DNA from: a virus
Reading direction: 5' to 3' (one strand)
DNA length: 64,000 nucleotides
IMG/VR virus record: IMGVR_UViG_3300035142_000030
Span: 12,722-76,721 of that record
Each line of letters starts with the position of its first letter. Positions within the stretch are counted from its first letter, which is position 1. Made by a program: the position numbers and the translations under genes. This document shows, piece by piece, positions 18,304-62,298 of this stretch. Below the pieces are notes generated by a model that saw nothing but the letters and a program-made list of their open reading frames with translations, ran no database searches and had not been told where the DNA came from.

Positions 18304-18436
18304 TTATACAACGTTAAGCTTATGATACGTTGCGTTTAATAACATAACTTTTTGATAAAAATAAAAATTATATAAAATGAATATACTTAACAAATTAGCA
18401 AAATGTAAGCAATGGATTATACGCATTGTTAGCAGT
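18304..18436. repeat. attC-like imperfect inverted repeat (array 1, site 1)
   Basis: ACAACGTTAAGCTTATGATACGTTGC ... GCAATGGATTATACGCATTGTTAG; same subfamily as 38548-38677. Confidence 0.7.
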
Positions 18437-18757
18437 AGTTTATCTGGGAGGGTTTTTTATGATAATGGTAAAAAATATATTATTCCTAAACACGTTTGGT
18501 TTAGCACAACTTTTAAAAAATATGGGAATGTACATAAAGCAAAGTTTGTTATCAACAAATACTCAAAGTCAGAACCAAAACGAAGAATATGTAAATACAT
18601 AGATGTTACAACTGGAACATATTTTTGTTTTGTAACCGCAAAAAGCAAAATAGAAGCACAAAAATTATTTTATAAGCAATTGTGCGAATCAGGTGTTATT
18701 TTAAATGAAGAAGAAGAATGGAATCAATTTTTTTTCGGGCATGAACAAAGCGAATAA
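18377..18757 (+). CDS. Hypothetical cassette protein starting inside the repeat
   Basis: KQWIIRIVSSS is encoded by the repeat arm. Confidence 0.6.
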   Translation: MNILNKLAKCKQWIIRIVSSSLSGRVFYDNGKKYIIPKHVWFSTTFKKYGNVHKAKFVINKYSKSEPKRRICKYIDVTTGTYFCFVTAKSKIEAQKLFYKQLCESGVILNEEEEWNQFFFGHEQSE

Positions 18758-23727: not shown

Positions 23728-24201
23728 ATGGAAAACAGAAAATCTAAAACAAAAGAAAGAAAGTTTTATAAGGAAAGCGAATATAACGGAAGATCACAAT
23801 TTACTTTCTTAATAAAATTTGAAGGTGATGACAAACAATATGTTTATAATTCATCTGTGAAAGAACCTAAATATTTTAAAGAGGGGGAGGAACAAGAATA
23901 TACCTATGAACATAAGACAGGAACAAAAAAAGATGGCACATCATGGGAGATGCATGTAGTAAAGCCCGTATACCCTAAACCTAATTTTGGAGGAAAAGGA
24001 GGATTCCAGCAGATGACTATTGAGGATTACATTCAAAGACAGAAAGTAGATTCTGTAGGATATGCTATGAGCTATGCAGAGAAGTTAGCAGAAGCTAAAG
24101 CAATAGAAATAAATAATCTATCGGAATACGCTAAGATAGTCCTTAACTGGATGTTAGCAGAAATAGATGAAGTAGCTAAAACTTTTAAAGAAAACGAATA
24201 A
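23728..24201 (+). CDS. Hypothetical protein, possibly ssDNA-binding
   Basis: Beta-rich N-terminus with Gly-rich linker in recombination module. Confidence 0.4.
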   Translation: MENRKSKTKERKFYKESEYNGRSQFTFLIKFEGDDKQYVYNSSVKEPKYFKEGEEQEYTYEHKTGTKKDGTSWEMHVVKPVYPKPNFGGKGGFQQMTIEDYIQRQKVDSVGYAMSYAEKLAEAKAIEINNLSEYAKIVLNWMLAEIDEVAKTFKENE

Positions 24202-24869
24202 TGGAAGATTACACAGAACAAAGATTAATAAATGTCCTTACTTTGGATATTGAAACGCTGCCATCGGGTAATCGCTTGACAGTTGATGAAATGAGAGAGA
24301 ACGCCCCCAAAAACTATAAGAAAGAAGACACCATAGTTAAATGGTGTGAGGAAAATATAGAAAATGAATATAGAGGTAGATCGTTAGATAGTTTAAAAGG
24401 GCGCATTTTATGTATTGGAATGAAATATAATGACGAAGAACCTATCATTATTCCTTATTATAAAGATGAGAGAGACTTAATGGATGATTTTACAGAGAAG
24501 CTTAACTCAATAGGTAAAGAAATCTATTCATGCGCTATTATGGGACATAACATTCGCAAATTTGATCTTCCTTGGCTTATACAGAGAGGTTTTAAATATG
24601 GTTTAAAAGATATTATAAGATTACTTCCTACAGATAAGTTTGATAAAAGATTAGTAGATACTAATGAATTGTTTAATGTGGGAGTGTATGCTCATTATAC
24701 GAAATTAAAAGATATGTGTATGTTCTTGGGGGTAGATACTCCGAAAGATGATATTGACGGCTCAGAAGTATATGATGTGTTTATGAAAGGAGAATTAGAC
24801 AGAATCTATACTTACTGCAAAAAAGATGTAGTTGCTACTTATGAATGCTATCAAAAGATGTTACCATAA
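24201..24869 (+). CDS. DEDD 3'-5' exonuclease (PolB-exo/DnaQ-like)
   Basis: LDIET, GHNIRKFDLP, YCKKDV motifs. Confidence 0.85.
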   Translation: MEDYTEQRLINVLTLDIETLPSGNRLTVDEMRENAPKNYKKEDTIVKWCEENIENEYRGRSLDSLKGRILCIGMKYNDEEPIIIPYYKDERDLMDDFTEKLNSIGKEIYSCAIMGHNIRKFDLPWLIQRGFKYGLKDIIRLLPTDKFDKRLVDTNELFNVGVYAHYTKLKDMCMFLGVDTPKDDIDGSEVYDVFMKGELDRIYTYCKKDVVATYECYQKMLP

Positions 24870-27808: not shown

Positions 27809-28333
27809 ATGAAATGCGTAATAATAACTTTAATAGTCATTTTTATTAATTTAAGCACATTTAAAGGACTTTATACCCCGAATCTATCTAACTATGTCAC
27901 GGAACAAAAAGAGTCGAATATAGAGCGTAAAATACGCTTAAACGAAATTTTAAATCAAAAAGAGTTCTCTGAGCAAGCCTTAAGAGAACTTTTAGTATTA
28001 TTAGAAGTACCTGATCCTAAAATTTCTTTTAATCAAGCAAGACTTGAAACAGGAAACTTTACATCAAGAGTTTTTAAAGAGGGGAATAACTTATTTGGCA
28101 TGCACATGCCAAGAGTGAGAGACACTTATGCTTTTGAATATATGATAGCTGATAATAATAGAAGGGTAGCAAAGTATAGAAGTTGGCAATCAGGAGTGCT
28201 TGACTATGTACTTCTTATTAAATATTACTCTGATTTGGGGTACGACACTACTTGTTTTTATACATTTTTAATAAATATAAATTATTGCGAGTTAGGGGGA
28301 GGGTATCTAGATATTCTCAAACAAATGACGTAA
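27809..28333 (+). CDS. Glucosaminidase/FlgJ-like peptidoglycan hydrolase with N-terminal TM/signal
   Basis: QARLETGNF...NNLFGM ... Y.SW..GV.DY motifs. Confidence 0.75.
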   Translation: MKCVIITLIVIFINLSTFKGLYTPNLSNYVTEQKESNIERKIRLNEILNQKEFSEQALRELLVLLEVPDPKISFNQARLETGNFTSRVFKEGNNLFGMHMPRVRDTYAFEYMIADNNRRVAKYRSWQSGVLDYVLLIKYYSDLGYDTTCFYTFLININYCELGGGYLDILKQMT

Positions 28334-28365
28334 AAAAGGGAAGACTAATCATCTTCCCTTCCTTT
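28332..28365. terminator. Probable bidirectional terminator between convergent blocks
   Basis: AAGGGAAGA..TCTTCCCTT stem at the convergence point. Confidence 0.55.
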
Positions 28366-28563
28366 TAATACATTTCGTAATACTACGACATCTTCATTCT
28401 GTGTAAGCACCTTTCTAATCTTTCTAAAATCACCTGTTTTACTTTTGAAGTTATTGCGCTCTATACATAGCTCTACTGCTTGAGCTTCTTCTACAGGGTT
28501 TAACTTATAACTAAATTCAGGAAAATCTTGCATTACGCTTTCTAATTGTACTGTATCAATCAT
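28345..28563 (-). CDS. Hypothetical protein
   Basis: 72 aa ORF. Confidence 0.5.
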   Translation of the reverse strand: MIDTVQLESVMQDFPEFSYKLNPVEEAQAVELCIERNNFKSKTGDFRKIRKVLTQNEDVVVLRNVLKGREDD

Positions 28564-28626
28564 ATATGTTTATAGGTTTTAAATAAAGTAAAAATGGATT
28601 GTAAATATACTTCAAAAAAGGTTACA

Positions 28627-28899
28627 CTATTGCTCTATATTTTCTTCCTTAAAAACAAATAGTTGACCTGATTTTATATATTTAAGCAGATGTTCGTCTG
28701 TGGTGTGTTCGGTTATTTCATAAAGCTCATATCTTTTTGAGAGACATCCATAGATAAGATATTTCATTCCTATATTACGCCTGTGATAGTTCCATTCATT
28801 AGGGTCTATGGTTACAAAAGCCCATATACTTTTACATGGGCTTGCGTTGTCTGGTAGTTCATTGTAGAACTCTAATCCTAGAAAGTCTGTTTTATGCAT
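28627..28899 (-). CDS. Hypothetical protein
   Basis: 90 aa ORF. Confidence 0.55.
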   Translation of the reverse strand: MHKTDFLGLEFYNELPDNASPCKSIWAFVTIDPNEWNYHRRNIGMKYLIYGCLSKRYELYEITEHTTDEHLLKYIKSGQLFVFKEENIEQ

Positions 28900-33289: not shown

Positions 33290-33586
33290 CTACCAACTGT
33301 TATAGAATCTGATTTTATGCACACCTTTAGGTAAATCTTTAATAAATATCTCATATCCAGAAGAAGCATCGTCATCATATTCTTTATAATGTTTTCCTGC
33401 TTCTAAGTTTATTTCTAATTTTTCATCCAATAAGTATTCTTCTGGATATTCACTGCCAAAATATTCAGCAGTAGCCTTTGGTAAATCTACATCAGCTTCT
33501 AAACAGGCTAATAATACTTTTTTGTGTTTTTGGTAAGTTTCATCCGTATCAGGTATGAATGCTTGTACATGTGTTGACATTCCCAT
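33290..33586 (-). CDS. Hypothetical cassette protein
   Basis: 98 aa ORF in the loop of a degenerate site. Confidence 0.65.
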   Translation of the reverse strand: MGMSTHVQAFIPDTDETYQKHKKVLLACLEADVDLPKATAEYFGSEYPEEYLLDEKLEINLEAGKHYKEYDDDASSGYEIFIKDLPKGVHKIRFYNSW

Positions 33587-33637
33587 CTCTTTTTATTTTT
33601 CCGTCAAACATATTTTTAATTTTTCATAACGTTCAAA

Positions 33638-33874
33638 TTAACAACACAAAAATTCAATCGCATCTTGTTCTTTTTTAAAGGGGCTTTCACATCCTTCAAT
33701 TAAAAAAGATGATTTATATGGGTAAATAACACCAATAACAGATAAGCATCCTTTATTTGCTACAATTAATTTATTTCCACATCTTTTAAATAAGAATTTA
33801 GGAAGTTTAATTTCTTCTTCTTCTTCTACATTATTATTTTTAATAAAATCTAATGACAAAATTTCTTCTTTCAT
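33638..33874 (-). CDS. Hypothetical protein
   Basis: 78 aa ORF downstream of a TACATTTG promoter on the minus strand (~33898-33905). Confidence 0.5.
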   Translation of the reverse strand: MKEEILSLDFIKNNNVEEEEEIKLPKFLFKRCGNKLIVANKGCLSVIGVIYPYKSSFLIEGCESPFKKEQDAIEFLCC

Positions 33875-34027
33875 AATAGTAAGTTTTAAAGTCTAATCAA
33901 ATGTATGGTAAATATTTTTAATATGCAAATTATATCCCTAAAAAGATTAATATAATTACTACAGATTTAATAAAAAGAAATCCTCCTATTATCCAAAGTA
34001 GTGCTACTGCTAGTAATTTTAACTTTT

Positions 34028-34330
34028 TCATAGTTTTCTATTTAAAAATGTAAATAATGCTGGTATATTCTCTCTAAATATAGAAGCATTTAACTCAGTA
34101 CCCTCTATTTCTTCATATAAAGCTGTATAGTCGTCTTTCAATACTTTCATATATATTTGCCCCAAATTAAGACCATTATACTCCTGAGCGAGTATATCTG
34201 CCTTTAAAATGAATTGATTAAATTTAACTTGCTTGTCCATAATTCTATGTTTTATGAGTTGTTTTCTTTTTAGTTCTTTTAGATGTTTATGGTTTAACAT
34301 CTCTAAGTGATCACATATAAAATCATTCAT
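34028..34330 (-). CDS. Hypothetical protein
   Basis: Likely start MNDFICDHL. Confidence 0.45.
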   Translation of the reverse strand: MNDFICDHLEMLNHKHLKELKRKQLIKHRIMDKQVKFNQFILKADILAQEYNGLNLGQIYMKVLKDDYTALYEEIEGTELNASIFRENIPALFTFLNRKL

Positions 34331-34745
34331 TGTTTTTATTAATATCCGATAATTTTTCAAAATAAAAAACTCCATCAAAAGGTTTATTCTCAGTAATTCC
34401 AAAATATTCAGCAACTTTTAATAAATACTTTTTACGCTTAATAGACTTTTCAGTTTTTGGATTTTTAGGTAACTTTCTAAGTCTTTTATGTAAGCCGCCT
34501 AAATACCAAGTTCTGAAAGTTTCTAAATCTAGTGATCCTTTATAATGGTTTATTATTTTTTGAACGGGAAACATATTTTCAATATTATGCGCTCTTTCAT
34601 TCATAGCCGTATTAGTCCACCAATTTCTAATTAGTGGTTCAACATGGTCTACTTGCCAATCATCTTCCAGATCAGTTCCTGAATAGGCACATTTACCATT
34701 GAATTTTGGTCTTATAATTTCTCTATTCTTTTTTGAAATGTACAT
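34323..34745 (-). CDS. HNH endonuclease
   Basis: KCAYSG...WQVDHVEP...NMFP....INHYKG. Confidence 0.8.
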   Translation of the reverse strand: MYISKKNREIIRPKFNGKCAYSGTDLEDDWQVDHVEPLIRNWWTNTAMNERAHNIENMFPVQKIINHYKGSLDLETFRTWYLGGLHKRLRKLPKNPKTEKSIKRKKYLLKVAEYFGITENKPFDGVFYFEKLSDINKNNE

Positions 34746-35379: not shown

Positions 35380-35545
35380 GCCGTAAATTTTACATACCGC
35401 TAACAAGCGGTCATAGTTAATAAAGCCAATTAAGTTTAGTTCGTTGTAGGTTGCGGTAGTGGGTGGCTTTACTAACCATACCGCATCTACGTTACAGACA
35501 ATTGCCCGCACGGCATTCCGCACGGGCTATCGCTCACAACCCACT

Positions 35546-35902
35546 CTAAATTTTGTTTAGAATTTGTTCCAACGCCCAATACTCTGGATTTGCAAGAGCA
35601 GTAACTACATTATTAATATCACAAATACTAATAATCAGCCAAATACATAAAATGATTGCAAGTATAACAATTGCAATCCAATGTCCAACTTCAGTATCAT
35701 TATCATAGCATTTTTGATAATTTTTAGCAAACCATTTTATGTATCGCACATATGGTATAATTAAGAGAAAAGAAATAATGATTAAGGTAATTCCCACAAA
35801 TGCATCAATAGGTGCTTGCTTAATCATAACTCCCCACAAGTATTCGGTCGTTGTACCAAGCTTACTTGCTAAGCTTTCTAATAATGTTGTTAATTCATTC
35901 AT
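35546..35902 (-). CDS. Membrane protein (cassette)
   Basis: LASKLGTTTEYLWGVMIKQA, two TM segments, NPEYWAL; bounded by a 14-bp IR. Confidence 0.7.
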   Translation of the reverse strand: MNELTTLLESLASKLGTTTEYLWGVMIKQAPIDAFVGITLIIISFLLIIPYVRYIKWFAKNYQKCYDNDTEVGHWIAIVILAIILCIWLIISICDINNVVTALANPEYWALEQILNKI

Positions 35903-36280
35903 TTTAATATAATTTAGTTAAACAAAATTTTCTAATGTCAATTGTCTGTAACAGTCGCCTAAATACAGCATTCGTCGCAGCTTCGTATCAAATTGGTTCA
36001 TATCGTATTGAAACCCTAAGGCAACTATCTGTAACTACTAAATACAAGCCAGCGAGACAAGCTCGCCATCGTGTATTTAGGCGACTGTTAGATTCCATAC
36101 TCCCACGGCATTCCCACAAACCCCGCTACGCCCCACCGCACAAAAACCATCGTATGAAATCTAATGGTACGGCAAGTAGTACCACTCGCTCAATACCATT
36201 TACGTATCTGAATCTTATTACTTCCTCCAACGTACAGAATCTAACTGTCAAGTCAGAGGAAAGTAATTTTAGAACTCATT

Positions 36281-36505
36281 CTAAACAATACGTTTACAGC
36301 TTAATTCCCAATGTACTTGTTCGGCAACTTTTAATCTACGAACTGAACTTTTTCCAGTTTCAGGTAATTTGCCTTCATTTAACCATAATAATATCATTTG
36401 TATAAAGTTGCCTGCTGGCAATTCTACTTTTTGACCTTTACCATCTATATAATAAACTGTATCAGTCAATTCGCTGTAAACTAATTCTTTTTTTTGCTCA
36501 ATCAT
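36281..36505 (-). CDS. Hypothetical protein within hairpin loop
   Basis: 74 aa ORF between inner arm (36242) and right arm (36537-36572). Confidence 0.6.
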   Translation of the reverse strand: MIEQKKELVYSELTDTVYYIDGKGQKVELPAGNFIQMILLWLNEGKLPETGKSSVRRLKVAEQVHWELSCKRIV

Positions 36506-36675
36506 TTCTATATAATTTTATCTGTTAATAAACAATGTTCTAAAATTCCCATCCACTACTTGCCGTACCATTGTAACTCAATTGACAGCTCTCCATCCGC
36601 ACAAGGCTTCCCATCCGCCCCGCAAAATACCAAAGCAATTGAGTTACAACGCTCGGAGTTCATTCGATGTAAAAA

Positions 36676-36930
36676 TTATGAAACACCGAGTTTATGAGCT
36701 TCTTCATCAAATGCAATTTTTATATTTGTAATTTCAGTTTGAATTTCTAATAAAAGTTCATGAAATTCTTGTTGCTTATCTTCAATTTGTTTGTCAGCAA
36801 ATTGCATTTTTGAAATTATGTTCTCCTTATAAGCATAAGCAGAGTTCAAATCATTTTTTAATTTTGTGTGCTTAGCTTTAAGAACATCAAGTCTATTTAA
36901 GTAATTACCATACTGTTCTTGAAAATTCAT
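36676..36930 (-). CDS. Coiled-coil hypothetical protein between outer and inner arms
   Basis: 84 aa ORF. Confidence 0.6.
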   Translation of the reverse strand: MNFQEQYGNYLNRLDVLKAKHTKLKNDLNSAYAYKENIISKMQFADKQIEDKQQEFHELLLEIQTEITNIKIAFDEEAHKLGVS

Positions 36931-37121
36931 AATTTTTACCTTTCTATATTTAAGTTTATAATGTTCGATACGTCACAGCGTACAACTACGTGTAATGCAG
37001 AATTGCTACAATCGAATGATGCCGATTTACGGCTTTACTTTGCCTTGCGGCAAATCGCCGCAACTCAGCATACACTCCGAGCGTTATGCGTAAAAATACC
37101 CGCATCCTAGTTCGCTAACGC

Positions 37122-37217
37122 TCACCCATCCGCATCCTCCCACTTATCAATATACAATTTTAGCTTATAAATAAGTATTCCTATTACAATTCCGATTCCT
37201 ATTAATATTAAATTCAT
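37122..37217 (-). CDS. 31-aa membrane peptide cassette (MNLILIGIGIVIGILIYKLKLYIDKWEDADG)
   Basis: Only ORF within the 16-bp IR 37083-37098/37225-37240. Confidence 0.5.
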   Translation of the reverse strand: MNLILIGIGIVIGILIYKLKLYIDKWEDADG

Positions 37218-37374
37218 ATCCAAATATTTTTACGCATAACACCAGAGAAAATATACCGTCCCGCAGGAGACGTTCTCCAGTATCTGCAAGTTTATATTCC
37301 TAATATTTCTACTCATAACTAAAAAATCATAGCACATTAAAATCAAAACTCTGTGTTTAATAAAATAAAGCCAA

Positions 37375-37725
37375 TTAATATATATTCTTTCTACCCCTGT
37401 CAGCGTGCAATGGTACTAAATGATCACACGAACCGCAAAAATGTTTAGCTTTAGTCTCCCAGTAAATTCCTTCAGAATGTGTATCAAAAAGCGAATTACA
37501 ATTGCTACACATCTCAATATGGTCTGGTAGTAAAGGAAAATGTTCTTGTAAATAATAAATTATTGCAAACGCTTTTTTAGCTGTCATCTTTGGCTGATGC
37601 CCACGCTTAAAAGAAAGTTGTTCAGGTAATTCACCTTGTAAAAAATTGTAAAATTCTTCTATCCATTCAAGGTCTGTATCAATCCTCTGATCATTATTTT
37701 TAAGCAATTTTATTTCATTGTACAT
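37375..37725 (-). CDS. Zn-finger hypothetical protein within hairpin loop
   Basis: CSNC ... CGSC; enclosed by TAAAATAAAGCC/GGCTTTATTTTA IR. Confidence 0.65.
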   Translation of the reverse strand: MYNEIKLLKNNDQRIDTDLEWIEEFYNFLQGELPEQLSFKRGHQPKMTAKKAFAIIYYLQEHFPLLPDHIEMCSNCNSLFDTHSEGIYWETKAKHFCGSCDHLVPLHADRGRKNIY

Positions 37726-37865
37726 AAGGCTTTATTTTTAATTAGTACTAAATTTATAATCATATTTTACCTGTAATTTCATCAAGTTTCAATCAATGTT
37801 TTAATTTTACCGTCCCATATTTTCTCTGGTGTTAGAAAACATGCCGTTTCGAACGGACGCAAAAA

Positions 37866-38147
37866 TCATTTTGCTTTCTTATATTTAGAGCCTTTACTAT
37901 TACAAAAATCACATATTGCATTGTTAGGTTTGTTAGATATACATGAACTGCAAAATTTCCATTTTTGCTCATGTTTTCTAACGGTTTCACGTTCGTTTGA
38001 TATTAAAATTTGATTGATAAAGTCATTCAATTGGACTATAGCGTATTCAACAGACAACATATCTAATGTGTCTTCATCTCCAATTGTATCAAGTCTATCC
38101 ATTAATATCTTACGTATTCCATCAGTATAATCTTTTTTATGTTTCAT
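37866..38147 (-). CDS. Hypothetical protein reading through a repeat arm
   Basis: NERETVRKHE is encoded by outer arm 37970-37992; Cys-rich tail. Confidence 0.55.
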   Translation of the reverse strand: MKHKKDYTDGIRKILMDRLDTIGDEDTLDMLSVEYAIVQLNDFINQILISNERETVRKHEQKWKFCSSCISNKPNNAICDFCNSKGSKYKKAK

Positions 38148-38320
38148 AATATCAAATTTTAATTATTAATACTAATTTAGTTTATCAATTCTCAACGTCA
38201 CGATTTTCTAACCAACGTTTATGCTTAATTAAAGCTATCAAACGATGCTCCGTTAAAGCTTTTCTTGCGTTTCACGCAACCGCTTTAACAAAGCATACAC
38301 GTGAAACCGTTAGAGTGCAT

Positions 38321-38608
38321 TTAATCCAAGTGAATAAGCATTTCTCCCCACGCACTTCTACCTTTCACTTTCGGTAGTGATGTGTAGTGTAGTGTCATTC
38401 CTGTAAATTCACACTCTTTGTTATTTAAACTTTTTTTAACCATCCAGTCTTTTGCTTCTTTCCTTATAATATCATCTTCATTGTTTCGATGCCAGCCCAC
38501 GCTAATTATCAAATTACCAATTCTAATTTTACTAAGTGAAAAACGCACTCTAACAATAGATAAAATCCATTGCTTAAAATGTGCTAATTCGTTACGTAAG
38601 TATTTCAT
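38321..38608 (-). CDS. Hypothetical cassette protein starting inside the repeat
   Basis: MKYLRNELAHFKQWILSIVRVR is homologous to the N-terminus of 18377. Confidence 0.6.
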   Translation of the reverse strand: MKYLRNELAHFKQWILSIVRVRFSLSKIRIGNLIISVGWHRNNEDDIIRKEAKDWMVKKSLNNKECEFTGMTLHYTSLPKVKGRSAWGEMLIHLD

Positions 38609-38764
38609 ATCAATGTTTTTATAAGTTTGAAAATTCAGTTCATTAAATCGCAACGTATCTTATCAGAGCCGTTGCACACAATGCCCCATCTAGGGGACGT
38701 GCGACTCGCTATCGCTCCTGTCGCACTCATTGTGTGCAACAGTTTGGCGTTAGCTTGTAAATAA

Positions 38765-38941
38765 TTATTCGCTCAGTACTTCTAAACTATAAGATGATAC
38801 ATAATCAATCTTTTTACCAACTATTACAACTGCATACGGTATATCATCAGCTCCCCGCACGTATCCATCAATGTATCCAACATCTCCAACCTTAAACATC
38901 ATATGTTGGTATTCTTTAATAATTTTAACTTTTGTCTTCAT
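38765..38941 (-). CDS. 58-aa hypothetical protein (MKTKVKIIKEYQH...GYIDGYVRGADDIPYAVV)
   Basis: Clean ORF between duplicated TGTGCAAC cores; below the track size cutoff. Confidence 0.55.
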   Translation of the reverse strand: MKTKVKIIKEYQHMMFKVGDVGYIDGYVRGADDIPYAVVIVGKKIDYVSSYSLEVLSE

Positions 38942-38976
38942 AATTATTTATTTAGTTATTTGTTAATTTCTGCTTA

Positions 38977-39147
38977 CTAGATGGTGCACAATGTGCAACT
39001 AGCGTTTATGCGTAATTGTAATAGGCAATTTCCAATCTCCCAGTAACTTGCGCCTAAACGTTCCAATATCATTTCAGCTTTCTCAAAGCTCCAACTTTTA
39101 TAACATTGATAAAAGTTCCCTTTATAGGTATACATTATATGAATCAT
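38977..39147 (-). CDS. Hypothetical protein ending in a repeat arm
   Basis: MIHIMYTYKG...LGASYWEIG; tail QLRINASCT is encoded by the arm. Confidence 0.5.
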   Translation of the reverse strand: MIHIMYTYKGNFYQCYKSWSFEKAEMILERLGASYWEIGNCLLQLRINASCTLCTI

Positions 39148-39532
39148 AATTTTATATTTAAAGTTTGTACTAAATTTTAACAATACCCTAAAAATCCTTC
39201 CCATATCTTTCGGAGTGTTATGGCTCAATTTCGCTACGCTCTACGATGACTTCATTTAATTGAGCCATAACGAGACAACGTATGAAGTACAGGCTCAGTG
39301 TACTATATTAATTCTATTTTAATTTATCCGCTCAACTAGAGCATAACTACATATAAGCGTAATACTATGAGCCTTACTTCAAAGCTCTCAGAATATTTCA
39401 CCGATAAAAATCGGCTCATATTCCTACGCTTATACGTTGTCTCGTTAGTAGCAAGCGGGTTCAGTTCTCGTATCAAACATTGTGCGTATTTGAAAGAAAA
39501 AGAAAAGCCCCGCCCGCTTTTGGCAAAGCCAA

Positions 39533-48208: not shown

Positions 48209-48625
48209 GTGATGAAAAATTTAAAACAGGCATTAATTGAAAATATCGCTGACATTTTAGATAGTGAAGATGTACGGTGTGAAGAGGTGTTAAACGGAAT
48301 TTCCGACCCGATAAAAAGAGAAAAAAGCGAGTTGCATATAAGGATGGCAGAAGCTGCACTTGCTGAATACAAAAGAACGTGCGAGGACAGGGCAATGGAA
48401 TTAGATATTGAAATATTTGACAAAAACAGAAAGGTATTACATATAGGTAGTATTATAAGCCGTTATTTATTTAAACTTGCAGAAAAGCACGATAAAGATG
48501 TTGAAGATTTACTACTAGGTATAGAACTAAGCCAACCAATTAGAGATGATGGAAAGAACATCATAGAATTAGTGGACTTAGACCTTAATAGAATTGACAA
48601 GGTTTTATGTTCTAATGGCTTATAA
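48209..48625 (+). CDS. Hypothetical cassette protein reading through a repeat arm
   Basis: KVLHIGSIISR is encoded by the arm; stop codon falls in the next core (TATAAC). Confidence 0.55.
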   Translation: MMKNLKQALIENIADILDSEDVRCEEVLNGISDPIKREKSELHIRMAEAALAEYKRTCEDRAMELDIEIFDKNRKVLHIGSIISRYLFKLAEKHDKDVEDLLLGIELSQPIRDDGKNIIELVDLDLNRIDKVLCSNGL

Positions 48626-48709
48626 CGTTGAATGTATGGGTAGGGCGTGAAATACCTGCAGCCCTACACGCGATAGATAAACATTAAATAACATAAATAG
48701 CGAACGATT

Positions 48710-49105
48710 ATGAAACACGTAATAGAATTACTTACAGAACAATTAGAATTGATTAGTGACGAAATAAGATATGCAGAAGGTGAAGAACTGAAACAGTTAG
48801 ACTGCAGAAACACAGAAATAGGGACTGCTCTTAAAATACTGCAGTTAGTGAGCGGTGTAAATACGGAGAACGAACAAGCCTTACCTATACATATTGTTAG
48901 GGTTTGTGCTTGGGAGGATGCTGCAGACGAGGATAAAGTACCATTTTTAGAAAAAGCTGCAGAACTTGCAGGTGATTCAATGTTTTGTACGCGCGTTTGG
49001 AGTGCGTGGGGAGTTGGAACTATGAGCGAGAACGACTTTGTTGATGCTGCAGATGATGATGATTACGTATACGAAATAGCAAAAGCGATTTGGGAGGGGT
49101 ATTAA
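48710..49105 (+). CDS. Hypothetical cassette protein reading through a repeat arm
   Basis: QALPIHIVRVC is encoded by the arm; C-terminal domain CTRVWSAWGVGTMSENDF. Confidence 0.6.
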   Translation: MKHVIELLTEQLELISDEIRYAEGEELKQLDCRNTEIGTALKILQLVSGVNTENEQALPIHIVRVCAWEDAADEDKVPFLEKAAELAGDSMFCTRVWSAWGVGTMSENDFVDAADDDDYVYEIAKAIWEGY

Positions 49106-49255
49106 CCCTAACGCCTTAAAGCGTAAACTCCGTTACATGGAGAACGTAGTTCGGGAATGTAACGAGTTTAAAATGCTGTAATGGAGTTTACGCATAGTTA
49201 CAAACCGTGCCAATGGCACAAAGATTATTAGAATGTTGAACTTAAAATAAATTTT

Positions 49256-49405
49256 ATGAAACGTTTATGTAAAATGAAACCATATTATGTAATACCAAGA
49301 GTATTTTATATATATGCTGGCTATACTGGATTAGATAATGGATTAGCAATAGGTTGGCTTGGCAGAATGTTTATTATAATTATTCCTGTTAATGAAAGGG
49401 AATAA
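49256..49405 (+). CDS. 49-aa hypothetical peptide between inner and outer arms
   Basis: MKRLCKMKPYYVIPRVFYIYAG...LAIGWLGRMFIIII. Confidence 0.45.
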   Translation: MKRLCKMKPYYVIPRVFYIYAGYTGLDNGLAIGWLGRMFIIIIPVNERE

Positions 49406-49744
49406 AATTTATGCATTTTAGCTTTAAGGCGTTACAAAACCATAGGCAAACAGTGGAAACGGTGAGCGAAGCGAATAAGTTTCGTTTGCCGTGCCTCGAT
49501 GGCATGGTTTTGTAACGTACGTGTATACGCCTGTTGGTATGATTATTAATAGTATAAACTTAAATTAATAAATAATAAAATTACGTAAATTCGCAAAAAT
49601 AATAAAGACAACGAAAACAGATTTGCAGAAATGATAATACCCAGAAAAGATATTGATATAATAATTAAGAGACAAAGATCAATATTATAACAAAGTGTTA
49701 ATCAAAAATTGAATGAATAATAAACGTATTAAATATATAATATT

Positions 49745-50230: not shown

Positions 50231-51211
50231 ATGAACGAAAGTAGCAATAACAGTTTTTTGAGCGTTGGTGGAAAAGCCGAAGGGATAAATGTAGTAAGTA
50301 TGTTTGATGGTGCAAGCTGTGGACAAATAGCTTTAGAAAAAGCAAAAGTAATGGTAAAAAATTATGTTGCTTCTGAAATAAAGCCACATGCTATAGTAAC
50401 ATCTAAATTACATTACCCAAACACTATACATGTTGGAGATGTTAGATACTTGCATGTAGTAAATACGGGTGTTGAAGTTAATATTAATAGAGCACAATAT
50501 AGAACAATAGGAATTGGATTAATTGATTTAATAATCGGTGGTAGCCCCTGCAAAGGGATAAGCAGATTAAACAAAAATCAAGAAGGGTTAAAGCACAAGG
50601 AAAGTATTTTATTTTGGGAGTTTGTGAGGGTTTTAGAACAAGCTAAACTGTGTAACCCAGATGTATATTTTTTACTTGAAAATACGCACGGAAATAAAGA
50701 AGCAACTCAAATAATAACTGAGACATTAGGCGTTAAACCTATTAGCATTAACAGTAAACTTGTTACAGCACAAAATAGACCTAGATACTATTGGACAAAT
50801 ATACCAGGCATTGAGCAACCAAAAGACAAAGGAATAACGACCAACGATGTTTTTAAATACAACGGGGACATAGTAGATGATTGTAGGGTAAAATGGCTTA
50901 ATAACGATAGTGGTAAAAACTCTGTAAAAAAAGGATACACAAGAATAAACCCTTACCCTAAAAGTGGTTGCTTAACTGCCAATGGACATAAAAAATGGAA
51001 CGAGAATTATTTGTATAAAGATGGTGTGTACAGATATTTATCTAAAGAAGAGCTAGAGGTATTGCAAACATTTCCAATTGGATATACAAAACATTTAAGT
51101 TATGATGATGCTTATGATTTAATTGGCGAGGCTTGGACGATTGATATTATAGCACATATATTTTCTTATTTGCCGATAGGCAAAAGAGGGGGAGAAAAAG
51201 ATGTATGTTAA
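50231..51211 (+). CDS. dcm: C5 cytosine DNA methyltransferase
   Basis: SMFDG (motif I), GGSPC (IV), FLLEN (VI), QNRPRYYW (VIII). Confidence 0.9.
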   Translation: MNESSNNSFLSVGGKAEGINVVSMFDGASCGQIALEKAKVMVKNYVASEIKPHAIVTSKLHYPNTIHVGDVRYLHVVNTGVEVNINRAQYRTIGIGLIDLIIGGSPCKGISRLNKNQEGLKHKESILFWEFVRVLEQAKLCNPDVYFLLENTHGNKEATQIITETLGVKPISINSKLVTAQNRPRYYWTNIPGIEQPKDKGITTNDVFKYNGDIVDDCRVKWLNNDSGKNSVKKGYTRINPYPKSGCLTANGHKKWNENYLYKDGVYRYLSKEELEVLQTFPIGYTKHLSYDDAYDLIGEAWTIDIIAHIFSYLPIGKRGGEKDVC

Positions 51212-61461: not shown

Positions 61462-61536
61462 GGCTCTGTGGTGGACGCGGCAATACACAACGGTTTTAAG
61501 CACCGTCTTTCGCGGGTTGGAGTCCCGCCAGAGCTA
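61462..61536 (+). tRNA. tRNA-Leu(TAA), short variable loop
   Basis: GGCTCTG/CAGAGCT acceptor; ACGGT-TTTAAGC-ACCGT. Confidence 0.75.
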
Positions 61537-61540
61537 CTAA

Positions 61541-61615
61541 GCCCATATGGCGGACGCGGGAATACGCGATAGTCTTAGGAACTATTTTTCACAGGTTCGA
61601 GTCCTGTTATGGGCA
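61541..61615 (+). tRNA. tRNA-Leu(TAG), short variable loop
   Basis: GCCCATA/TATGGGC acceptor; ATAGT-CTTAGGA-ACTAT; GGTTCGAGTCC. Confidence 0.85.
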
Positions 61616-61619
61616 CAAT

Positions 61620-61703
61620 GGAAGGATCGACAGCGGCCTGTCAGGGAGTCTTGAAAACTCTTATGCGATGTAACAGTTGGGGGATCGACACCTCATCCTT
61701 CCG
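61620..61703 (+). tRNA. tRNA-Ser(TGA)
   Basis: GGAAGGA/TCCTTCC acceptor, G discriminator, CTTGAAA loop, long variable region. Confidence 0.7.
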
Positions 61704-61709
61704 CAATTA

Positions 61710-61776
61710 GGGGTAGAACGGGTGGAAGCCTGGTCTGTAAAACCATTGCTCTGAAGTTCGATACTTCACTACCCCA
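61710..61776 (+). tRNA. tRNA-Tyr(GTA), atypical (short D arm)
   Basis: GGGGTAG/CTACCCC acceptor; TGGT-CTGTAAA-ACCA. Confidence 0.55.
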
Positions 61777-61780
61777 CAAA

Positions 61781-61865
61781 GGAAGATTGACTGAAAGGTA
61801 AGGTGCTGGTTTGCTAAACCAAGGCTAGGGTAATACCTAAACAGGCTCGATACCTGTATCTTCCG
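61781..61865 (+). tRNA. tRNA-Ser(GCT)
   Basis: GGAAGAT/ATCTTCC acceptor; TTGCTAA loop; long variable arm. Confidence 0.8.
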
Positions 61866-61870
61866 CAAAT

Positions 61871-61938
61871 AGATGTGAGCCAAGGTGGTGATGTAGCCTC
61901 CAAAACTACAGAAGAGAGTTCGATCCTCGTACGGAGTA
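61871..61938 (+). tRNA. tRNA-Trp(CCA), degenerate acceptor (possible pseudogene)
   Basis: GTAG-C-CTCCAAA-A-CTAC anticodon arm; GAG-TTCGATC-CTC T-arm. Confidence 0.45.
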
Positions 61939-61943
61939 CAAAT

Positions 61944-62014
61944 TGCCCTATAGAATAATGGTAGTTCATCTGACTTTGGATCAGATAGTTCCAGTTCAAA
62001 TCTGGATAGGGCAT
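61944..62014 (+). tRNA. tRNA-Gln(TTG)
   Basis: TGCCCTA/TAGGGCA acceptor; TCTGA-CTTTGGA-TCAGA. Confidence 0.85.
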
Positions 62015-62056
62015 CAAAATAATTTTTATTAATTTTTATTATTAAATAATTTTTTG

Positions 62057-62219
62057 TATATTTGTAAAATACTTTAAAGGATTATGATTTCATTAGGTAG
62101 AAAAAATATGGTTAATATTGATCGTGGAGCAACGCTAAACGAACAGGAGGATTTATTTGTCTAAATGAATTAAATAAAAAGACTAAGAGCCCTCCAAGAA
62201 ATTGAGAGGGCTCTTTTAT
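62057..62219 (+). promoter_or_regulatory. Promoter plus leader peptide (62084-62164) and terminator before second tRNA pair
   Basis: TATATTTG; MISLGRKNMVNIDRGATLNEQEDLFV; AAGAGCCCTC/GAGGGCTCTT plus T-run; GGAGG/CCTCC alternative pairing. Confidence 0.55.
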
Positions 62220-62292
62220 TGGCGCATAGTATAATTGGTAAGTACGCAAGGCTGATGCCCCTGAAATCTAGGTTCAATCCCTAGTGTGCCAA
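62220..62292 (+). tRNA. tRNA with GAT anticodon (Ile), atypical body
   Basis: TGGCGCA/TGTGCCA acceptor; CTGATGC loop; CTAGG-TTCAATC-CCTAG. Confidence 0.6.
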
Positions 62293-62298
62293 CAAAAC

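Follow-up and report, generated by a model that had tools for sequence, protein, structure and literature searches.

The 64,000-nt stretch of DNA analyzed here (the window) spans bases 12722 to 76721 of a viral record (IMGVR_UViG_3300035142_000030) that is complete at 76.7 kb, carries direct terminal repeats, has a G+C content of ~31%, and originates from a wetland metagenome. Two genes of this phage with unrelated bodies, an open reading frame (ORF) at 18377 to 18757 on the plus strand and another at 38321 to 38608 on the minus strand, begin inside two homologous copies of an imperfect hairpin, and we hold with good confidence that this hairpin is an attC-like recombination site of an integron-like cassette system common to the chromosomes and phages of Flavobacteriaceae/Bacteroidota. 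An earlier note on this DNA had listed six ORFs that start within hairpins of the window and are read through their arms, giving unrelated proteins a shared peptide. All six ORFs are present, each reading through a hairpin arm, and the common N terminus of ORFs 18377 and 38608 ahead of unrelated bodies is borne out by BLASTP, which aligns residues 5 to 23 of the former with residues 6 to 24 of the latter (10 of 19 identical) and leaves the bodies unaligned. The arm peptide is common to these two ORFs only; the remaining four have the same architecture, with hairpins of the same build that are not homologous to the 18377/38608 repeat.

At the nucleotide level, ORFs 18377 and 38608 share a 112-nt repeat of 74% identity (E = 1.5 × 10−12 within the 76.7-kb genome), which occurs in two copies only and extends from 67 nt upstream of each ATG to codon 19 to 24. 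Both copies are ~122-nt hairpins of the form AAC-box A...loop...box B-GTT (18310 to 18430, plus strand; 38673 to 38552, minus strand), with the ATG in the loop and the 3' arm translated as KQWI(I/L)(R/S)IV. The untranslated 5' arm of copy 1 (box A, 18310 to 18334; type-2 arm CTTATGATACGTTGC) begins with the AAC core followed by a G, lies 43 to 67 nt 5' of the ATG, and pairs with the 3' arm (box B, 18409 to 18430). The loop between them (18335 to 18408) holds an AT-rich spacer, the ATG at 18377, and the first 10 codons. Box B ends in the GTT core at 18428 to 18430, which encodes Val18, and together with the AAG codon before it (18407 to 18409) is read as KQWIIRIV, so that the 126-aa product, to which no family could be assigned, has a leader derived from the hairpin. 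In copy 2, on the minus strand, the untranslated box A (38649 to 38673; type-1 arm TGATAAGATACGTTGC) carries the AAC core at 38673 to 38671, and box B (38552 to 38573) ends in the GTT core at 38554 to 38552, which encodes Val19, and is read with the preceding AAG codon as KQWILSIV. Codons 1 to 18 of this 95-aa ORF correspond to the loop and arm, and its body is the next segment. A reading of the two genes as diverged paralogues, or of their resemblance as a chance match in AT-rich DNA, could appeal to there being just two copies of modest identity in the genome; it is nevertheless extremely improbable in view of the E value, of a similarity that begins well upstream of the ATG and ends within the first 24 codons, and of the >100 further copies that stand elsewhere ahead of 43 unrelated bodies (see below).

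Searches of the Pfam and PHROGs collections returned only subthreshold matches for all six ORFs and no family for 18377 or 38608. The motifs ATTGTTAG, AAGCAATGGATT, and GATACGTTGCG show no enrichment in the window apart from the two copies, and since short repeat motifs elsewhere in the window are at the chance level, the other four ORFs lack this repeat. BLASTN searches of GenBank phages with both regions gave no match, those with the hairpin alone gave only AT-rich chance matches, and the exact box A/box B sequence was absent from 50,697 GenBank phage records. The search for related loci recovered none for ORF 18377 and a single, body-only homologue for ORF 38608. Within box B, CAATG...CATTG could form a local hairpin, but this candidate structure is weak (z scores of 0.26 and −2.9 in copies 1 and 2, respectively) and was superseded by the box A/box B pairing.

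Pattern scans recovered the element in 12 other viral contigs and >100 metagenome contigs. RNAalifold, applied to 12 copies, predicted pairing between box A, which lies upstream, and box B, which lies within the ORF, and we evaluated this pairing with 71 copies from other contigs, comparing 21 hairpin pairs with six control pairs from flanking columns. The controls were mostly unpaired, as expected, whereas box A and box B are seldom unpaired (3 to 7 of the 71 copies). Four pairs show compensatory changes among GC, CG, UA, and AU: 24:140 (GC in 36 copies, CG in 15, and UA in 12), 25:139 (AU in 45, GC in 19, and CG in 4), 28:136 (AU in 48 and UA in 20), and 23:141. Sliding one partner by 1 to 3 columns lowered the pairing from 82% to between 30 and 54%, and none of 500 shuffles reached the observed covariation score. 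The resulting helix of ~21 bp comprises stems of 7, 8, and 6 bp, a 2-nt bulge, and a 2 × 2 internal loop. AAC and GTT are invariant in all 71 aligned copies; the AAC was imposed by the search pattern and the GTT was free, and a scan with box B alone gave four matches, all carrying AACG. Loop lengths vary widely, from 9 nt in Polaribacter phage P12002L through ~90 nt in most metagenome copies to 165 nt at one P12002L site, and the loops of the other hairpins in the window reach ~300 nt.

The same alignment contains four pairs that are G.U on the sense strand of the gene, three of them (18:144, 29:134, and 34:129) in 68 to 71 of 71 copies and the fourth (19:143) in 43 of 71. These raise the alternative that the hairpin functions chiefly in the mRNA, where it could act as an insulator that presents a looped start codon, as a translational operator, or as a target of RNase III. 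A ~21-bp helix with internal loops resembles known RNase III substrates, the start codon and its AT-rich leader are located in the loop, and every G.U pair, of which four, taken as invariant, belong to the hairpin helix and a fifth to the body helix, is on the sense strand. Under this alternative, the genes would be shuffled by homologous recombination between their leaders, for which the PeSL elements of T4-type phages provide a precedent (PMC2839356, PMC4122927). Rfam searches yielded only tRNAs and chance matches, with no family for the hairpin or for the inner hairpins of its chromosomal variants (see below), and no read-through ORF exists in 14 of 80 copies; both observations speak against an mRNA element, as does the rarity with which the pairing is broken, which argues against crossovers within the loop. 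Together with the breakpoints and host arrays described below, they make this alternative unlikely, although the hairpin may have a side effect on expression at the RNA level.

The translated arm is conserved as nucleotides. Among the 12 in-frame copies, the box B codons AAG CAA TGG ATT TTA TCT ATT GTT are free of synonymous changes, and all the changes that box B does have alter a residue; the neighboring codons do vary synonymously. The two window copies differ by TTA TCT (Leu-Ser) versus ATA CGC (Ile-Arg) at positions that covary with box A, where the counterpart is GATAAG versus CTTATG/CGTATG, and the L/I and S/R differences are thus due to compensatory changes in the stem. The peptide KQWI(L/I)(S/R)IV arises incidentally from the sequence of the arm, and the constraint is on the nucleotides rather than on the peptide. 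A competing view takes the shared N terminus as a protein signal under peptide selection, for example a tag for packaging, targeting, or processing comparable to the capsid-targeting sequence (CTS) of T4 internal proteins. The maintenance of one reading frame in most copies and the motif x-x-(R/S)-(F/Y) that comes after IV favor such a signal, but the R/S position is accounted for by the body helix (see below), the chromosomal copies are noncoding, and no Pfam or PHROGs family corresponds to the peptide. Moreover, in one lineage (loci L005 and L110), the arm is translated in a different frame and there begins an ORF that contains the DIPYG motif of DNA methyltransferases. A CTS-like peptide should be conserved at the protein level independently of the nucleotides; given the lack of synonymous variation and the covariation with the untranslated box A, we consider a peptide signal very improbable.

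In 58 of 80 copies, frame 0 stays open from a loop ATG across box B and the GTT and for at least 15 codons beyond, compared with four copies for each of the other two frames; ~35 open codons would be expected by chance in an estimated ~5% of cases at this base composition. The loops of some of the copies without read-through have GC-rich inner hairpins in place of the ATG. The homologues P0002, P0003, and P0005 share the ATG start, and the loop ATG is the only in-frame ATG of ORF 18377. This pattern suggests that the loop ATG serves as the start codon. The proposal of the earlier note that the site supplies translation starts and N-terminal modules can, on this basis, be retained for a putative start codon and the first 18 to 24 codons; these do not constitute a protein module or domain, because the arm covaries with the untranslated box A.

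TBLASTN searches with both proteins against all fetched loci gave dozens of matches confined to residues 1 to about 18 to 30, and the translations beyond the joint from 62 copies fall into 43 BLASTP families. In 37 pairs of copies, the hairpins are ≥92% identical and the bodies are unrelated from the first bases past GTT. The two halves also occur apart from each other: P0007 (locus L114) has the ORF 38608 leader on a third, unrelated body, and P0006 (L004, 3926 to 4216, in a 321-kb viral contig) has the ORF 38608 body (68% identity over residues 27 to 95) behind a different, lysine-rich N terminus that lacks the hairpin. The test proposed in the note thus came out as it predicted, and the halves do not always co-occur.

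Most bodies are closed by an inverted repeat of their own. In 43 of 69 copies, the 9-mer that starts at GTT recurs in exactly inverted form 100 to 530 nt downstream, compared with none of 69 in a reversed-sequence control, and the general form of the closing 14-bp repeat is GTT N7 G N3...N3 T N7 AAC. The body helix has 10 Watson-Crick pairs, a G.T pair (42 of 49 copies, never Watson-Crick), and 3 further pairs, after which it ends. The conserved G of the G.T pair is the middle base of a CGT or AGT codon, which explains the x-x-(R/S) that follows IV. Of the 43 downstream cores found independently through this repeat, 31 are AACG, and the body-repeat signature recurs in other phage genomes, with approximately none at control cores. 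The stop codon is usually in a TAAAT motif just 5' of the 3' arm, and the cargo segment usually lacks a start codon of its own. The body of copy 2 (38309 to 38554, minus strand) is closed in this way: GTTAGAGTGC-G-TTT (38554 to 38541) pairs over 14 bp with AAA-T-GCACTCTAAC (38322 to 38309), position 11 is a sense-strand G.T pair, and translation ends at a stop codon immediately ahead of the 3' arm.

We then compared what is shared on either side of the cores. Among 76 copies, 32 pairs share a body and have unrelated upstream DNA, and no pair shows the converse; the hairpins of these 32 pairs are also more alike (median, 0.87) than the background (0.71). In all pairs inspected, homology begins at the 5' AAC and stops at the AAC past the 3' arm, with unrelated DNA outside. 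Thus, a cassette extends from one AAC to the next and comprises the hairpin and its body. In a few pairs (e.g., L006/L007), hairpins of different types precede the same body, suggesting that the GTT joint is sometimes exchanged too. The earlier idea that recombination at the core could make in-frame fusions therefore applies to these few exchanges, with hairpin and body mostly moving together; likewise, the predicted break at the IV(S/R) core is seen in the 37 pairs that diverge right after GTT, but the sharp boundary is the 5' AAC and not GTT. The carrier phages, of 39 to 99 kb, have almost no genes in common with this phage in TBLASTN searches, indicating that the cassettes cross between unrelated phages. 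As homology ends at the cores and the DNA to either side is unrelated, no homology is available there in which the homologous crossovers postulated for an mRNA leader could take place. Our initial idea of a PeSL-like leader cassette spread by homologous recombination was dropped on account of these breakpoints and the host arrays. Inversion of the shufflon or G-segment type was also considered and rejected, since the inverted ORF 38608 body, examined by hand, runs into a stop after ~22 codons.

One carrier genome (G004; L149 to L151) has three cassettes in tandem at 33381 to 34346, of which the first two have identical body arms (ATGCACC/GGTGCAT). In the second, which may be a decaying cassette, the loop-ATG ORF terminates 9 codons beyond the core, and the usual stop is that of a shorter, internal ORF.

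A scan of prokaryotes, with one genome per species, detected the box A/box B hairpin in Flavobacteriaceae/Bacteroidia genomes (Flagellimonas, Croceitalea, Maribacter, Subsaximicrobium, and several metagenome-assembled genomes [MAGs]); the other matches were chance-like or on phage-type contigs. The host genomes contain arrays, with a spacing of ~117 nt, of body repeats that show the same G.T signature. The flanking genes are oriented as in classical integrons, on the opposite strand, in Flagellimonas (L167), a Bacteroidia MAG (L178), and a Flavobacteriaceae MAG (L175). In Flagellimonas, the Bacteroidia MAG, and Subsaximicrobium, the array lies 50 to 700 nt from the best integron-integrase match of the genome, a tyrosine recombinase of 375 to 409 aa; in the other two genomes, the best match is near a contig end. 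The five host recombinases (355 to 416 aa) score 192 to 228 bits on NF040815 (XerA/integron integrase) and TIGR02249, and two of the five pass the NF040815 cutoff of 220. They are Xer-like with an extra N terminus of 110 to 145 aa. A hairpin that is antisense to its flanking genes and adjoins a recombinase is not what would be expected of an mRNA element.

The chromosomal variant (L163, L165, L167, L171, L175, and L178; also L069, L073, L080, L099, and L121) has a loop without ATG that instead contains two conserved GC-rich inner hairpins, GGACATTTCC...GGAAA.TGTCC and GGATTTCC...GGAAATCC. The arrays at L167 (2809 to 3552) and L178 (2048 to 4578) include IS3-type transposase genes (rve domain), and one MAG has a second tyrosine integrase, of the conjugative-transposon (CTn) type, close to the array.

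These observations can be combined in the following model. On the sense strand, AAC-G, box A, a variable loop, box B, and GTT fold into the ~21-bp helix, which is interrupted by two internal loops. The variable loop of the phage sites holds an AT-rich leader, an ATG, and ~10 codons; the ribosome would consequently read box B and GTT (Val) and continue into the cargo, which has a separate 14-bp inverted repeat that closes it and terminates in AAC. The AAC-to-AAC cassette would move between otherwise unrelated phages by site-specific recombination at the AAC core. The likely enzyme is a host-encoded tyrosine recombinase of the Xer/integron-integrase-like kind, because the phage itself has none.

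In most respects, the hairpin resembles the attC sites of integrons, including the homogeneous ones of sedentary chromosomal integrons such as the Vibrio cholerae repeats. Both are imperfect hairpins bounded by AAC...GTT, with two paired boxes split by unpaired spacers, a variable terminal loop, and better folding of one strand than of the other. Both have a G after the crossover-box AAC, which is an attC feature (PMC2727003). As in integrons, the first bases of a cassette are complementary to the box before its own site, the cassette boundary is at the core, and the host arrays adjoin a tyrosine recombinase. The complementary flanks, however, extend over 14 bp here, compared with 7 in integrons; the phage genes are on the strand opposite to that of classical cassettes and start in the loop of the site, with the result that the arm is translated; the host recombinase is Xer-like, below the integron-integrase cutoff; and the phage lacks IntI, the classical attC features being otherwise mostly present.

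Several points weigh against this identification. The phage has no tyrosine recombinase (PF00589), serine recombinase (PF00239), or IS200-type transposase (PF01797), and five other carrier genomes have no match to PF00589. The only sequencing run listed as containing this DNA is the probable source sample, with no RNA run among those listed, and its contigs, of which one is identical to the window, gave no informative joints; no recombination event was seen. (Searches of this phage and of four carrier genomes detected neither NinG nor endonuclease VII, and a TBLASTN search for a gene common to the carrier phages, as a candidate enzyme, found none.) All five host recombinases (192 to 214 bits) fall below the TIGR02249 cutoff of 265, and they do not match model positions ~180 to 239, which we take to be the IntI-specific insertion. 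The invariant sense-strand G.U/G.T pairs are equally compatible with a folded DNA strand and with a structure in the mRNA, the evidence for use of the loop ATG is its conservation, and a 3' partner arm was looked for and not found for the body of ORF 18377. The helix has two extra bases on the box A arm, the one that carries the boundary AAC, whereas the extrahelical bases of classical attC sites are on the other, R''-L'' arm (PMC2727003). Finally, the P12002L site nearest to this hairpin family is attC1, which IntI1 did not recombine (PMC9892861).

That report provides the closest comparison for the phage side of the system. Qi et al. 2023 (PMC9892861) described clusters of attC sites that lack an integrase in virulent phages, among them Polaribacter phage P12002L, in which two sites were called attC and the second, attC2, was recombined by IntI1. 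This Flavobacteriia phage thus has integrase-less arrays of the same kind, and P12002L_attC1, AAC-GGCTAC-stem...stem-ATT-GTT-AGGCG, has the layout seen here. We found homologous box-A-like hairpins ahead of small genes of P12002L, one of which, gp57, lies wholly in one loop and ends inside box B. Start codons in loops, translated arms, 14-bp body repeats, and host arrays do not appear in the accessible part of that report.

For a start codon inside a recombination site, the nearest precedents are ORF-11/ORF-18 of attI1 and the fused cassettes of class 1 integrons, in which a short ORF spans the crossover and serves start-less cassettes (PMC8876359, PMC4670013). The translation start within the recombination site and the N-terminal fusions at the joint are common to both systems. 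ORF-11/ORF-18, however, sit in attI, normally stop in the cassette core, and act by translational coupling (PMC8876359, PMC4670013), whereas here each attC-like site carries a start and in-frame fusion to the cargo is the normal state. The PeSL elements of T4-type phages are likewise stem-loop leaders that precede unrelated ORFan genes in plastic regions subject to gene shuffling, but they are intergenic, carry promoter and terminator motifs, and are thought to spread by homologous recombination (PMC2839356, PMC4122927). They are untranslated and have neither AAC/GTT cores nor arrays linked to a host recombinase; with the 3' arm coding here, the likeness is only superficial.

Turning to the other ORFs of the window, ORF 38147 (38147 to 37866, minus strand) starts in the loop of an AAC...GTT hairpin at 37977 to 38314 with 16-bp perfect arms and crosses ACC GTT AGA in frame into the body at 37982 to 37831, which has 13-bp perfect arms (GTTAGAAAACATG) and encodes the CxxC...CxxC C-terminal part of the protein. 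The ORF from 39150 to 38977 (minus strand) only terminates, with TAG, inside the 5' arm (38999 to 38977; partner, 38693 to 38671) of a GTT...AAC segment, and the GTT is out of frame. On the plus strand, ORF 48209 to 48625 contains a body at 48452 to 48626 whose core is mutated to ATT at 48452; its arms are ATTATAAGCC-G-TTA and TAA-T-GGCTTATAAC, with the stop codon inside the 3' arm. The adjacent AAC...GTT hairpin (48624 to 48898, plus strand) holds the start of ORF 48710 to 49105 in its loop, and its 3' arm is read ALPIHIV. This ORF crosses ATT GTT AGG into a body at 48896 to 49112 (GTTAGGGTT...AACCCTAAC), where the stop codon abuts the 3' arm.

Copy 2 is part of an array on the minus strand, at 35491 to 39447, of ~15 abutting segments that have self-complementary ends with 12- to 19-bp perfect arms and share an AAC or GTT core with their neighbors. 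This chain and the sites at 48452 to 49434 qualify as an integrase-less attC cluster (CALIN), with the sites called as attC by anatomy alone. Between 35500 and 37250 (minus strand), the G-rich motifs GTGCGG, GGATGCGG, and GGATGGG are repeated near the segment 3' ends, just 5' of the 3' arm. One 158-nt segment (37083 to 37240, minus strand; 16-bp perfect arms) has as its sole ORF a 31-codon frame encoding a hydrophobic peptide (MNLILIGIGIVIGILIYKL...).

The genes of the window are arranged in a plus-strand block to about 28.3 kb and a minus-strand block from 28.6 to 45 kb. Copies 18377 and 38608 are nearly symmetric (midpoint, 28492) about the convergence of these blocks at the strand switch (28333 to 28627), which may be a coincidence or a trace of genome architecture. 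A DNA methyltransferase gene (phrog_116; 50231 to 51211) lies just past the third hairpin cluster, and a gene resembling a 3'-5' exonuclease or DNA polymerase exonuclease is at 24201 to 24869. A tRNA cluster at 61462 to 62293 comprises, according to ARAGORN, Leu, Leu, Ser, Gln, and Ile; Rfam adds a tRNA at 61781 to 61865 that is not in the ARAGORN list and omits the Ser tRNA at 61620 to 61704.

As a more tentative proposal, which we put forward as possible without considering it the likelier outcome, the attC-like site might act as a two-way adaptor that provides a start, and perhaps a promoter, in its loop and to which start-less cargo is joined in frame at GTT (Val). If this were true, the gene would be on the strand opposite to that of classical cassettes, and a hairpin and a coding fragment would be fused to the exact codon when a cassette is born. 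The at least 43 leader-body combinations would then offer a handle on the unsolved origin of integron cassettes, as well as a natural platform for N-terminally tagged protein fusions.

More generally, a recombination site would here double as the start of protein-coding genes and set the ~20 N-terminal residues of dozens of unrelated phage proteins, with compensatory changes in the stem becoming visible as amino acid changes. In annotation, shared N termini together with 14-bp body repeats could flag both cassettes and true gene starts. The hairpin also ties the integrase-less arrays of lytic-type phages to the recombinase-linked arrays of their host family; hence, accessory genes, including those for DNA methyltransferases, may be traded via a host-run integron-like system that differs from classical integrons.

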